Positions 13,735 through 60,415 of a DNA stretch of 64,000 nt are shown in pieces (positions within the stretch are counted from its first letter, which is position 1; each line of letters begins with the position of its first letter). The notes below the pieces were generated by a model that worked only from the letters and a program-made list of their open reading frames with translations, was not told the DNA's origin and ran no database searches. This DNA comes from Octopus sinensis (taxonomy: Eukaryota), in contig NC_042997.1 in NCBI RefSeq assembly GCF_006345805.1, positions 51,956,001 through 52,020,000 on the forward strand, read 5' to 3'. The translations under genes and the position numbers were made by a program.

Positions 13735-13822
13735 TTCACTACAGCTGTTTCAGACGTGCTTTTTATTGATGAACAGAAGTGTTACAACATGCAATAAAAA
13801 GAAAAAGTTTTCATCAAGTGGA
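13735..13822 (-). ncRNA. Decayed minimal hammerhead-ribozyme-like motif
   Basis: Minus strand reads TCCAC-TTGATGA...GAAAC-AGCT-GTA-GTGAA. Paralogous to 28656-28736 and abuts a (CA)n tract. Confidence 0.45.
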
Positions 13823-14492
13823 CACAGGTGAGAATTAACAATTAGAACTTCTCAAGAACAAGGACGTAGTGCCAGATGATTCGGACAATCCAAATTCAGA
13901 ACATTGTCTATAGGTGCAATAGGCTTGGTGAATGTATTCATGTGTGACCTTGATGATTCATTGTGTTTTCAGTCAGCCACTTGAGAATAAATCCGTTTTT
14001 TTTTTAGTGATTACTTATTTGTCGTTATATATTGTTTGTACACGATAGCGCTATCACCGACCCGACCTTGGTGCTTCCACCATTTACCCCCACCCACCCA
14101 AACACACACACACACAGACACACACATACACACACACACACCACACACACACACACACACACACACCACACACACACACGTGAGCTAAAATTTTCCTCGC
14201 ATAAGCGCAGCCTGGTCACTGACACAGTTTCATAGAAAAAGAAACCATAAGTGACAGGCCACAGATGTGCGATGAAAATTTCAACTCCTGGAAAGATAAA
14301 TTCGAATTTTTAATGAATTTAACAGTTTTGTTATTAATTGGCTCTTCCACGATATATTTGCTCTCTCTTTCTTTTCTTTGCTGAATCTACAACACATACA
14401 TACATACATACATACATACATACATACATACATACATACACACACACACACATACATACATACATACATACATACATACATACATACATACA

Positions 14493-15030
14493 TGCTCTGT
14501 GGCTGGAAGAAATCCGAAAAATTTATTGCTCCTACATTACATCCAAGACATACAACATTGGTGGTGAAACTCTTGCAACTGGGATCCAGAAACTTCAGGA
14601 TGGAAAAGCACCTGGAAGAGACTTGATTGTTGGATACTGGTACAAGAAGCTAACATTCTACCAACCATATCTTATCCATCTGTATCAGCAAGTTTTCATT
14701 GGGAACAGTAGCATACCACACTTGTTAGCTCTGGCAGAGACAAAATTGATCCCAAAATGCAGAACCACCCAATTGCATGCCAGAACTTAATGTGTAAAAT
14801 ATATACAGCAGTTTAAACCGCTTCCCCCAGGACTATTGTGAAACTAATAACATTATAACAGCAGAACAAGCAGCTGGGAAGAAGGGAGTCTGGGGATGTA
14901 CCGAGCAATTGTTAATCAACAAAATTGTGGTGTCAGAGGTGTGAAAGCATAGGAGGAACCTAGATTCAATGTGGCTAGACTACAAGAATGCCTTTGACTC
15001 TGTTCTCCACTCATGGATGCTAAACTGTAT
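14493..15030 (+). mobile_element. R4/Dong-clade non-LTR retrotransposon RT fragment
   Basis: KAPGRDLIVGYWYKKL, TKLIPK, PIACQNLM.KIYT, EQAAGKKGVWGCTEQLLINK, WLDYKNAFDSV.HSW. Directly follows (TACA)n. Confidence 0.75.
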
Positions 15031-15870
15031 CGAAAGTAATGACAGCCTTTGAGAAAGATGGAAAAACCTCCTGTCCAAACAAAACTCCGGAAGAAAACCA
15101 AAACCTTCATACCAAAACCAAAACCTTCATACGCGAATTGTTAGAAAGGAACACAAAAGTACAGCTCCAAAAATTACTGCAGAGCTTAACGATCAACTCG
15201 AAGCCAGTTTTCACAAAAACTGTTCGCTGGGAGCTGCACAAAGCCGGATTTCACGGGATGGTGGCAATCAGAAAATTAGTACTTTCAAAAACAAACGTTG
15301 AAAACATTTAGAAAAAACCTATAGAATTGGTCCCTAGAGCAGTGGAAGAATGTTATTTTCTCGGACGAATAATCGTTTACCTTATTTCCGACCACTGACC
15401 GAGTATGTGTGTGGAGACAGCCAAAAGAAGCATTTGAACCAGACTGCCTTCTTCCAGCTGTTAAACATGGAGGAGGATCTGTGATGATCGGTGGGGGGGG
15501 GGACTATATCTTGGAAACCTGCTGGCCCAATGGTTTCCCTTCAAGGCAGAATTAATGGTCAAGACTATTTAAGCATTTTATCTGATCAAATTCATCCTAT
15601 GGTTGCGGAACTGTTTCTGGAGGGAAACACAATCTTTCAGGATGATAATGCACCAATTCACACAGTTGTTACTGAATGGCACGAGAACATTTTAGTGAAG
15701 CTGAACATCTTATCTGGCCAATACAGTCCTCAGATCTCAATATTATTGAACATATTAGTAAAACGAGTAAGGAGTCGATATCCTCCACCATCATCACTAC
15801 AAGATCTGGAGACTGATTTAGCTGAAGAATGGACAAAAATCCCTTTGGAAACAATTCAAACTTTCTACTG
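15031..15870 (+). mobile_element. Tc1-family (DD34E) transposase pseudogene fragment
   Basis: WKNVIFSDE, VWRQPKEAF, VKHGGGSVMI, IFQDDNAPIHT, SPDLNIIE and EEWTKIP motifs; frameshifted. Confidence 0.9.
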
Positions 15871-16110
15871 TAGTTACTGCCAAATGTGAATAAAAGAATG
15901 ACTCGTAGGAAGATTTCAAAATATTCAGTTATGGCGTTTGCAAAGATGTTCAGGACTTTGTGGAAAGAAAACATTACGACTGGTTTGATGAAAATAGTGA
16001 AATTCAGATGCTATTAAATGTAAAAAATATAGCGCTTACAGTCCTACTGCGTGGCATTTCTTTGTAGGGAACCAGAAATGCATTAAAAAAATGCATGTTA
16101 TTATTATTAA

Positions 16111-16275
16111 GGCGGCGATCTGGCAAAATTATTACCACGCCTGGTAAAATACTCAGCGGTATTTCGTCCGTTTTTACGTTCTGAGTTCAAATACCGCCGA
16201 AGTCGACTTGGGCTTTCATATTTTCTGAGTCGAGGAAATAAATATCAGCTGGGTACTGGAGTCGATATAATCCCC
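16111..16275 (+). mobile_element. SINE family A copy (3' truncated)
   Basis: GGCGGCGATCTGGCAAAA..CTGAGTTCAAATACCGCCGAAGTCGAC matches family A. Confidence 0.75.
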
Positions 16276-16832
16276 ACAAAAGTCTAAAAAAATATACTTA
16301 GTATGGATTTTTAGCCTACACACAGCCACACGCACATAATGCGTGCATCTTTGTGATTTTATAGTCGCTACTTTTTTCAAAGTTTCTGATGTTTTAGATA
16401 TTGTGGTAATTATTATCTATGGCGAAAATGAATTATATGTCAATTATTAGCATACAAAACTACACCATTACACCAAATATTAAATCAATTGGAACAGAAA
16501 TTGAAGAAATTGAAAAGTGGCAGCCAAACAGAAAAGATTCTTTGTGAGCCTATGTCAATAACTATTAATGGCTTGTAGTTTCGATTTCATTCTTTGTTTA
16601 CATCTGACGTCTCAAATACGAAACGTCGGAACAGAATCAGCGATGGCTATAATTTCCATAGAAAATCTGGAGATATGACTTTGACACGTGATATGTCGAT
16701 GACATTTTTGAGAATGAAGTTGTAACTAAAGGACAAAGAACAATAAAAAGCTTCCTGTTAGTTACTGATGTTCTAACGGATGTGGTTTAATGCAGAATTA
16801 TTTTGTAACTCTTGTGGTTACTGTTCATATAA

Positions 16833-58506: not shown

Positions 58507-58606
58507 NNNNNNNNNNNNNNNNNNNNNNNNNNNNNNNNNNNNNNNNNNNNNNNNNNNNNNNNNNNNNNNNNNNNNNNNNNNNNNNNNNNNNNNNNNNNNN
58601 NNNNNN
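58507..58606. other. Assembly gap (100 N)
   Basis: Run of N. Confidence 0.99.
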
Positions 58607-59296
58607 GGGCCCCTATCTCCCAGTCCCCGTCTGATGGTATCTTCAATCTAACCCGCCTCGGTGCCTGGGGGTAATTCACATACCCAGGCTCTTATTAATT
58701 TCCTCCTGCTGTACGACGGGAGGAACAGAATTTTGTTGCGCTCCAAGGGCTGGCTCGTGAAATTGTGAGCCTTCTCCGGCGTGTCAAACAGCAACCATAC
58801 AGTTGCATGTTTGACACCGCGGGATATGTATTTAACAGAGGACAAATAGTCTTTCAGTTCATTTTCTATAACTGGTTTTGGGAAGACGGTGAGGGTATCA
58901 AGAACTTTAGAATAAGTTCTAACCACCACCGTCCTCTCTTCCATATCTTTCAACCACTGCTTCGATGGGACAATCTCCAACACTACAATCTTGTCTGTAT
59001 TTCTTTTTGCCATGTCCAAAGCAATAGTTCACAAAAAAGGAAAGAGAGAATTCAAAAGAAAACAAAAGGGAAGAAGAAATAAATAAAAAGCAAACAGTTC
59101 AATAAAAGGTCACAATAGAAGAAGAAAACAATAGTTCAAAAAAAAAAAAAGAAAACACGGCAAAAAGAAAAATCTTCTGGGCATTCAGGTACTCCAATTA
59201 AAACCTGGACTGCTTCACTTGAATACAGCTTTCCAACGTAGTCGTAAAATACACACTATTTACAAACAGCGAACGACTTTCGGTGGCAGGATAGTC
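58607..59296 (-). mobile_element. Putative 5' UTR + ORF1 N-terminus of an L1/Tx1-like LINE, cut by the gap
   Basis: Non-repetitive 123-aa ORF (58648-59019) with an RRM-like pattern (RTVVVR...VWLLFDTPEKA..F..PL..FLPSY..IRAWVCELPPG) and a T-rich leader. The family assignment is inference. Confidence 0.5.
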
Positions 59297-59718
59297 ATCA
59301 AACTATATTTCTCACAATGAGAAAAAATGTTCACTTCATGTGAACACTTGACATACAGTTTTCCAATAATGGTAAATGTTGTTGTAAAAACAAACACTTT
59401 GAAGGATACACCCACCAGACAATGAGAAAAAATTTTCATTTACTATGGACCATGTTGCTGAACCACAAGTAGACCAACATCCTGAATTCAGTGAAGATTC
59501 TCTGTTTGTAAAACATATAAGCACAGACAACGACCCTCACTGGGTGCAAGAGAAATGTCTTACCTTGGCAGCAACTTCTTTTGGCAGGCTAAACACAGCC
59601 GGCTATCTTCTTCAGTGCACAACACAATGACGCATGCACACACTGACAACTGAGATTCATGGAAAGTAAGTAAGCTACTTACCACACAGCCACTCATGCG
59701 ACTATAAAACGAAAGTGA

Positions 59719-59781
59719 TGCGTCGGCCGGGAATTGAACCCGGATCGACAGCTTGGAAGGCAACCATGCTACCACCGACGC
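59719..59781 (-). pseudogene. tRNA-Gly(TCC) with ~9-nt D-arm deletion
   Basis: GCGTCGG acceptor pairs with CCGACGC-A. Anticodon loop CTTCCAA. T arm CCGGG-TTCAATT-CCCGG. Only 63 nt long. TTTT about 10 nt downstream. Confidence 0.88.
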
Positions 59782-60352
59782 CACAATATATATATATCTA
59801 TATATATATATATATATATATATACACACTGACACACATACACACACACACACACACACACACACACACACACACACACATACACACACACATATGCGAG
59901 TATATGCGTATATAGAAGTTTTTACTCTTATTGCTTATTTTTTACACTTTTTTACACATTTTTCTGTATTTTGCCTTGAGTCCTGTTTTTTCTTGTGCAT
60001 GTGCGTATATAGACGTGTGTATGAACCTTTTATGTGCGCGCGCGCGCGTGTGTGCAAGCGTGTATGCGGGTATGTATGTATTTTTTGGCGAATGTGTGGG
60101 TGAGCATGTGTGTGTTTCAAGTGAGGGTGGATGAGTATATACATATAGGCGCATGTACATGGGTGTGCGGGCTTGTGTGTGTATGTATGGACATGCGTGC
60201 TTACACGATTACTATGAACATTTTTACTCCCTTACCTTTACCCCCCCATTACTTAGCGGCCATTCTAATAGCTCTTTTGTCTTAATAACGGTCAATTACA
60301 CTGTAATTCCCCTTTGTTTAACGGTCATTTTCATAGCATTTTTTCGATGGCC

Positions 60353-60415
60353 TGATAACTGAAGAGATGCCAGCGTGGGTTTCCGCCCCGACATCCGAAA
60401 CTCGGAGTTTTATCA
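60353..60415 (+). ncRNA. Type I hammerhead-ribozyme-like motif with canonical core
   Basis: TGATAA-CTGAAGA-GATG...CATC-C-GAAA-CTCgGAG-TT-TTATCA. 6-bp stem I; followed by (TA)n. Confidence 0.7.

Follow-up and report, generated by a model that had tools for sequence, protein, structure and literature searches.

The window analyzed here, a 64,000-nucleotide stretch of the Octopus sinensis genome (RefSeq assembly GCF_006345805.1, contig NC_042997.1, positions 51,956,001 to 52,020,000 of the forward strand), very probably contains real minimal type I hammerhead motifs located in the likely pseudo-long terminal repeat (pLTR) ends of several Penelope-like, probably Neptune-type, families, one of which is abundant and has a G3:C8 pair in its ribozyme core. 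The pairing of core positions 3 and 8 has been inferred from structure and from engineered swaps, and the natural states known are C-G and U-A. The arrangement of these elements is known; the G3:C8 core is the new part, alongside ordinary Penelope-like anatomy.

The G3:C8 repeat family

The G3:C8 motif is found on the reverse strand, in an insertion with two arms and a tail:

33165-33486: whole insertion, consisting of a full-hammerhead arm (33165-33302, -), an inverted arm truncated in the core (33303-33421, +) and a tail (33422-33486)
33242-33292 (-): minimal hammerhead G3:C8, core GUGAACA, with a 7-bp stem I, a 5-bp stem II and an ATAT stem III; position 3 is 33285 and H17 is 33249

The tail has 65 bases, and (TA)n is present at both ends of the insertion. 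Because just one arm in the window has the G3:C8 core, a private change was possible, and a family alignment was therefore made by matching four sequencing runs (X1, X13, X23, and X24) to 33166-33330 at 80% likeness. X1 and X13 come from separate samples and studies, the matches in both being contigs and X13 being perhaps an RNA run; X23 and X24 are raw reads with the same species label as X1. G3:C8 proved to be the family-wide state of an abundant repeat, not a private change: the repeat was matched by 12,334 contigs of X1 and by 915 of X13, and every alternative letter at core positions 3-9 (33279-33285) stays below 5% in both.

The stems are kept across copies as well as the 3:8 pair, as an earlier reading made from the sequence alone (the sequence-only reading) had expected of a family consensus. 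Position 11.1 is C in 87% (X1) and 93% (X13) of the family, which restores G10.1-C11.1 and a 5-bp stem II, so the mismatch at this position in the window is private. Position 1.3 varies between G and A opposite U (A in 52% and 71% of X1 and X13, respectively), and both letters pair; the remaining changes listed for the family concern loop II, a CpG, or the downstream part. The family consensus has perfect 7-bp and 5-bp stems. Only two of the 11 core positions depart from the hammerhead consensus, and these are exactly the paired two (rough chance 0.006); that the changed letters are the paired letters argues for past selection. On this analysis the G3:C8 motif is predicted to cut with reduced activity. 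The 34368 motif has the stem II design of 33242 with a compensatory change, together with U3:A8, and its sequence suggests a sister lineage of the G3:C8 family.

Inversion joints in the family connect 33292-33293 to varied points within 33214-33258, as expected of truncated inverted arms. Past 33293, the loose ends of four groups drawn from two runs agree over about 15 letters and then diverge (agreement 0.52-0.70), which suggests that the copies have one 5′ end in common, some 24 bases before the core. Depth sums were rejected as a measure of copy number, and the rough figure of 40,000 copies is indicative only. A family of about 200 bases, probably non-autonomous, present in thousands to tens of thousands of copies and still cutting with its natural G3:C8 core (whether dimeric or helped by a Neptune protein) is a tentative proposal, which we consider somewhat less probable than its contrary.

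Hammerhead motifs in the window

The sequence-only reading had listed ten hammerhead motifs, and all were located at the places, on the strands and with the cores given. They had been assigned to several unrelated elements; multiple families are indeed present, but the ten represent nine insertions (24431 and 24699 are the two arms of one) and fewer families than implied, with 13735 and 28656 belonging to one family and 41011 and 41678 having tail words in common. Two more motifs were found, 29285 (-), with U3:A8, and 45962 (-). Apart from the G3:C8 motif, the set comprises:

13737-13820 (-): decayed hammerhead, U3.G8, long stem II, family of 28655
24431-24518 (-): hammerhead CUGAAGA, long stem II, left arm of the inverted insertion 24395-24822
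24699-24786 (+): hammerhead CUGAAGA, right arm of that insertion, ending straight on (TA)n
28304-28352 (+): hammerhead CCGAUGA (C4 variant), AGCT stem III
28655-28737 (+): hammerhead CUGAAGA, long frayed stem II, AGCT stem III
29247-29291 (-): additional hammerhead, U3:A8 core UUGAUAA
34368-34406 (+): decayed U3:A8 motif UUGAAAA, stems III and I′ broken
41011-41045 (-): hammerhead CCGACGA (C4 variant), CG stem III
41678-41713 (-): hammerhead CUGUCGA (U6 variant), CG stem III
45849-45966 (-): additional candidate, CCGAAGA core, very long stem II (about 90 bases), CGATCG stem III
60353-60415 (+): hammerhead CUGAAGA, 6-bp stem I

The layout is complete in 24431 (-), 33242 (-), 41011 (-), 41678 (-), and 60353 (+); 24699 (+) has a stem III mismatch, and 28304 (+) and 28656 (+) likewise have a single defect or a frayed stem II. 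The remaining two are decayed copies: in 13735 (-) positions 3 and 8 read U3.G8 and the base of stem II is broken, whereas 34368 (+) has a non-palindromic stem III and no stem I′, so that reading it as a hammerhead depends on two other sequences, the copy at 25630-25738 and the inverted twin arm. The type I order (stem I, 7-nt core, stem II, GAAA, NUH, stem I′) is accordingly found in eight of the ten, in agreement with the earlier assignment to minimal hammerheads of Penelope type. Stem III (15.2-16.2 and loop III) is palindromic in eight of ten as well, with one mismatch in 24699 and no palindrome in 34368. The 33242 consensus, 41011, and 41678 clearly have an extra nucleotide after A9 and the G10.1-C11.1 pair; in the long-stem motifs these features are frayed or different.

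A literal CUGANGA or UUGANAA core is present in 24431, 24699, 28656, 60353, 34368, and 29285. The cores of 33242 (GUGAACA), 28304 and 41011 (C4), 41678 (U6), and 13735 are variants, not literal members; the set includes cores that escape a CUGANGA search, as had been claimed, or a small standard model. A model of nine standard motifs missed the G3:C8 motif, and no hammerhead was among the Rfam matches listed; both results are in line with the point that standard searches overlook such motifs, and are not evidence of membership.

Single-strand folding energies are ordinary (z of +0.2 to -1.3, with 11 of 11 motifs folded). In predicted dimers, the palindrome pairs between molecules fully in seven of 12 motifs and almost fully in two.

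Several further features of these repeats were observed. C4 occurs in three window motifs (28304, 41011, and 45962); CpG decay would remove C4, not create it. The segments 29075-29291 and 29431-29641 form a partial tandem of the U3:A8 hammerhead repeat, the second copy being 5′-truncated at the core. The copies at 34250-34423 and 25630-25738 are one family and have the same palindromic inversion center just upstream of the UUGAAAA core. An inverted pair at 53954-54170 has a 3′ half hammerhead on both arms; its stem II is long, and its core, near 54073, has decayed. On the right arm of this pair the predicted cut site is the start of (TATG)n.

Strict and relaxed hammerhead descriptors, both composed with the motifs already in view, were compared with 30 block shuffles of the window. 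Five strict matches have a Watson-Crick pair at 3:8, against a shuffle mean of 0.27 (maximum 2); one is unpaired there, against 0.8 in shuffles. With the relaxed descriptor the excess almost disappears (10 paired matches against 3.6 and 11 unpaired against 8.4). A score blind to the letters at positions 3 and 8 (cut-off 16.5; 40 shuffles as baseline) gave 10 matches of at least 16.5 against 1.1 in shuffles. Nine of these 10 are Watson-Crick at 3:8, compared with 32% of shuffled matches, which bears out, beyond chance, the earlier claim that the two positions remain complementary; the decayed 13735 copy, with U.G, had been named as its exception. Counting independent insertions only, eight of nine are paired (binomial 4e-4). 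The blind matches are mostly plain C3:G8, the non-canonical ones being G3:C8 (33285) and U3:A8 (29285), and they include seven of the ten original motifs but not 13735, 28656, or 34368.

Proximity to microsatellites, also proposed earlier, holds at the 3′ end of the motifs: a microsatellite lies 93-214 bases downstream of the ten cores, against a random-position median of 592 (P=0.004; one window, with two input positions displaced by 1-5 bases). Upstream proximity is weaker (P=0.035).

Penelope-like relatives, mechanism, and alternative readings

The window encodes a relic of the presumed partner class, a reverse transcriptase (RT)-linker-GIY-YIG open reading frame (ORF) where the sequence-only reading had noticed a decayed Penelope:

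11153-12868 (+): decayed, 5′-truncated Penelope-like ORF with RT, Cys linker, and C-terminal GIY-YIG
13258-13271 (+): canonical hammerhead (CUGAUGA) in the relic's 3′ region, of which the first half is present and the second absent

The U-rich tail of the relic stops on (TA)n at 13392. Among named proteins, one of Octopus bimaculoides is closest to its RT piece (57% identity), and the Cys linker shows no variation across 24 aligned relatives. This linker before GIY-YIG, which we take to be a trait of the Neptune clade, suggests that the relic is of Neptune type. It is the only RT/GIY-YIG ORF in the window located upstream of a hammerhead, the half motif at 13258, and membership of any of the ten motifs in the relic is not established. 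Further Penelope-like tail pieces were noted at 60700-60980 (-) and 62142-63073, with decayed or half cores at 60764 (-) and at 62348 (+) and 62868 (-).

On the proposed link to Penelope termini, no ORF adjoins the ten motifs; of 59 loci coding for RT relatives, nine have the hammerhead layout behind the gene, giving nine distinct clean sense-strand motifs (eight C3:G8 and one U3:A8, with compensatory stems), which were chosen with the stems as criterion and the 3:8 pair left out. One of these loci (L037) runs from ORF through hammerhead and U-rich tail to (TA)n, as the window relic does. G3:C8 at the expected place was found in none of the 59 loci; 13 sense-strand unpaired matches came from four weak motif forms. 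Loci L037-L095, where Penelope-like RTs occur together with hammerheads and microsatellites, belong to genomes labelled bacterial, and are probably animal host contigs binned there.

Insertion anatomy provides a second connection. In 24395-24822 the left arm extends about 95 bases as a tail to (TA)n and the other arm has no tail; 33165-33486 also has its tail on a single arm, and both arms of each insertion stop on (TA)n. A one-sided tail with an inverted arm is the signature described in parts of PMC8557442 and PMC11167929, and it links both insertions to the class.

We infer that these families are mobilized by Neptune elements; any ribozyme activity of the window motifs is likewise a prediction. 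The RT/GIY-YIG protein of an autonomous element would nick (TA)n or (CA)n DNA, and reverse transcription would begin at either of two internal sites 60-140 bases downstream of the hammerhead. Short copies would result, often with a tailed arm and an inverted, 5′-truncated, tailless arm. Because stem III by itself is too short to be stable, the RNA is predicted to be cut after UH only as a palindrome-paired dimer or with the protein of the element. The swapped pair would retain the 3:8 contact and leave reduced activity, and most genomic copies would be inert relics.

A number of results weigh against this account. A covariance model built from nine standard motifs outside the window separated 41011 (E 0.04) and 41678 (E 0.2) from noise and no others, missing the G3:C8 motif and the remaining window motifs. 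Most positions of the 33242 repeat vary by less than 5%, so its core is not set apart from its flanks in conservation. For the extra nucleotide, which is G in this repeat, the published consensus gives H. The predicted dimer of the 33242 copy shows 0/4 pairing of the palindrome across molecules, against 6/6 in six others. The raw-read runs X23 and X24 gave 0 and 22 matched reads, which means either that another organism is in these runs or that there is a conflict with high copy number. Comparison of 121 RT-related proteins with the window gave matches only at 11-12.9 kb, which leaves the ten motifs with no adjoining RT-coding sequence. Finally, the hammerhead is dispensable for insertion in vitro in the system described in part of PMC11167929.

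The carriers, at least in the G3:C8 family, may instead be genuinely non-autonomous: elements about 200 bases long that have fixed ends of their own and are copied in trans by a Neptune protein, a reading to which we give almost even weight. The common 5′ end seen in the loose ends beyond 33293 agrees with it, as do the protein comparison just described and the fact that non-autonomous hammerhead derivatives of Penelope-like elements are already in print (bioRxiv 10.64898/2026.07.22.740005, in part). A fixed end is also expected, however, from RT starting downstream of the first hammerhead and running to the 5′ end of an autonomous RNA (PMC11167929, in part); the Logan contigs are short, and a long parent could not show in them; and the window holds one partial tandem (29075-29641) and no retrozyme-type tandem array. 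A tandem retrozyme array was itself rejected as a candidate, there being no units in the window that each have a whole hammerhead and the twin at 29431-29641 being cut at the core.

That the G3:C8 ribozyme is dead or nearly dead, fixed by founder effect in an element that does not need cleavage for insertion, is a weaker possibility, though one of real weight. Founder-effect fixation is conceivable because hammerhead mutants inserted normally in vitro, and the engineered double mutant is only partly active (both from part of PMC11167929); the U17 site, the G as extra nucleotide, a 10-base A/U palindrome able to sequester GAAA, and the stem III pairing missing from the predicted 33242 dimer point the same way. 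Yet the two transversions fall precisely on paired positions while the remaining core letters are kept, the family consensus has unbroken stems I and II, and the sister motif 34368 combines U3:A8 with its compensatory stem II change.

It is very improbable that the motifs are chance matches in palindromic, AT-rich repeats resembling miniature inverted-repeat transposable elements (MITEs), a reading already contradicted for seven of the ten: relaxed descriptors often match shuffled DNA, folding z-scores are ordinary, 34368 and 13735 match poorly, and a metagenome pattern scan yielded chance-like loci, but the blind score gave its 10 matches against 1.1 with nine paired at 3:8, and one-sided tails with varied inversion points are unlike fixed terminal inverted repeats. 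The MITE reading was rejected.

That scan, with a degenerate 33242/34368-type pattern in metagenome contigs, gave 36 loci, of which none had stems I and III and whose 3:8 letters were mixed. Relatives of the window RT in viral contigs numbered 0 of 60 candidate stretches. Among the 150 of 204 Rfam matches listed for the window, which were microsatellite-driven miRNA-like noise and one tRNA-like match, hammerhead families were absent.

The window has a GC content of 36%, a microsatellite share of 7.4%, and 126 tandem-repeat rows. Other features include:

9436-9946: 16 copies of a 32-base tandem unit
15024-15889 (+) and 52786-53127 (-): Tc1/mariner transposase-like relics (by eye)
20572-21270: 96% identical 236-base inverted repeat around a telomere-like (AGGGTT)n at 20986-21035, with a shorter inverted copy near 20805-20835
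48083-49128 (-): Gypsy integrase-like relic (by eye)
58648-59028 (-): long interspersed nuclear element ORF1-like relic (by eye)
59719-59781 (-): tRNA-like sequence (Rfam tRNA, 40 bits) beside (TA)n/(CA)n

Comparison with known systems

A natural G3:C8 fixed in an abundant animal repeat would complete the picture of the 3:8 pair, and CUGANGA descriptors would then underestimate animal ribozyme counts. The family would also offer, in many natural copies, a way to ask if cleavage is what preserves Penelope hammerheads, which seem dispensable for insertion. If the tentative proposal above is true, the G3:C8 family, its probable U3:A8 sister, and the C3:G8 families bring three of the four Watson-Crick states together in one window, and standard searches miss a large class of animal ribozymes.

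The comparisons that follow draw on parts of PMC4209133, PMC3088659, PMC8557442, PMC11167929, and the bioRxiv report. Much of what is seen in the window is already in print: solo, opposite-strand, and U3-A8 minimal hammerheads, the microsatellite bias of Neptune elements, and non-autonomous derivatives. Minimal hammerheads in the pLTRs of metazoan Penelope-like elements were described by Cervera and De la Pena (2014, PMC4209133), and the window motifs resemble them in the type I layout, in some motifs the extra nucleotide after A9 and G10.1-C11.1, the palindromic 15.2-16.2, U17 sites, U3-A8 cores (UUGAUAA and UUGAAAA), and the occurrence of mostly solo motifs with opposite-strand pairs 100-700 bp apart. 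In contrast, G3:C8 and cephalopods are not among the examined rows of its 56-motif alignment, and the C4 and U6 cores and the 55-90-base stems II of the window are outside its consensus. Literature search found no report of octopus hammerheads; in the giant squid, 235 Rfam hammerheads have been counted (PMC6962438).

Natural U3-A8 covariation, U4C, and A6C, with reduced activity, are reported by Perreault (2011, PMC3088659), and G3:C8 is not named among the natural variants in the part of that paper compared. G3:C8 was found in the literature only as engineered swaps (PMC11167929, PMC8495972, and PMC3884650); a natural G3:C8 was not found, the Lunse 2017 survey of Penelope hammerhead variants, which could report it, being outside reach.

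Animal non-LTR (long terminal repeat) retrozymes (bioRxiv 10.64898/2026.07.22.740005) are similar to the window families in being short non-coding hammerhead units from pLTRs, but they are defined by tandem units each with a hammerhead, whereas the window copies are dispersed or in inverted pairs. Neptune and other endonuclease-containing (EN+) clades (Craig 2021, PMC8557442) have 5′-truncation, an inverted truncated copy at the 5′ end, a tail at one end, a microsatellite bias, and a Cys linker before GIY-YIG, as in the window; the window tails are 65-95 bases long rather than 30-40, and the short families are not joined to an ORF.

A further parallel is the Poseidon element PAc of Anolis (Frangieh 2024, PMC11167929), which has AT-rich targets, an optional tail lying between two RT start sites, and a hammerhead upstream of the RT starts. 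Cleavage of such ribozymes has been described as a dimer through the palindrome (PMC4209133) and as protein-assisted (PMC11167929), and a C3G/G8C double change partly restores cleavage in a Penelope hammerhead (PMC11167929). In PAc, G3:C8 is a laboratory double mutant; in the octopus repeat it is the natural state of a family.

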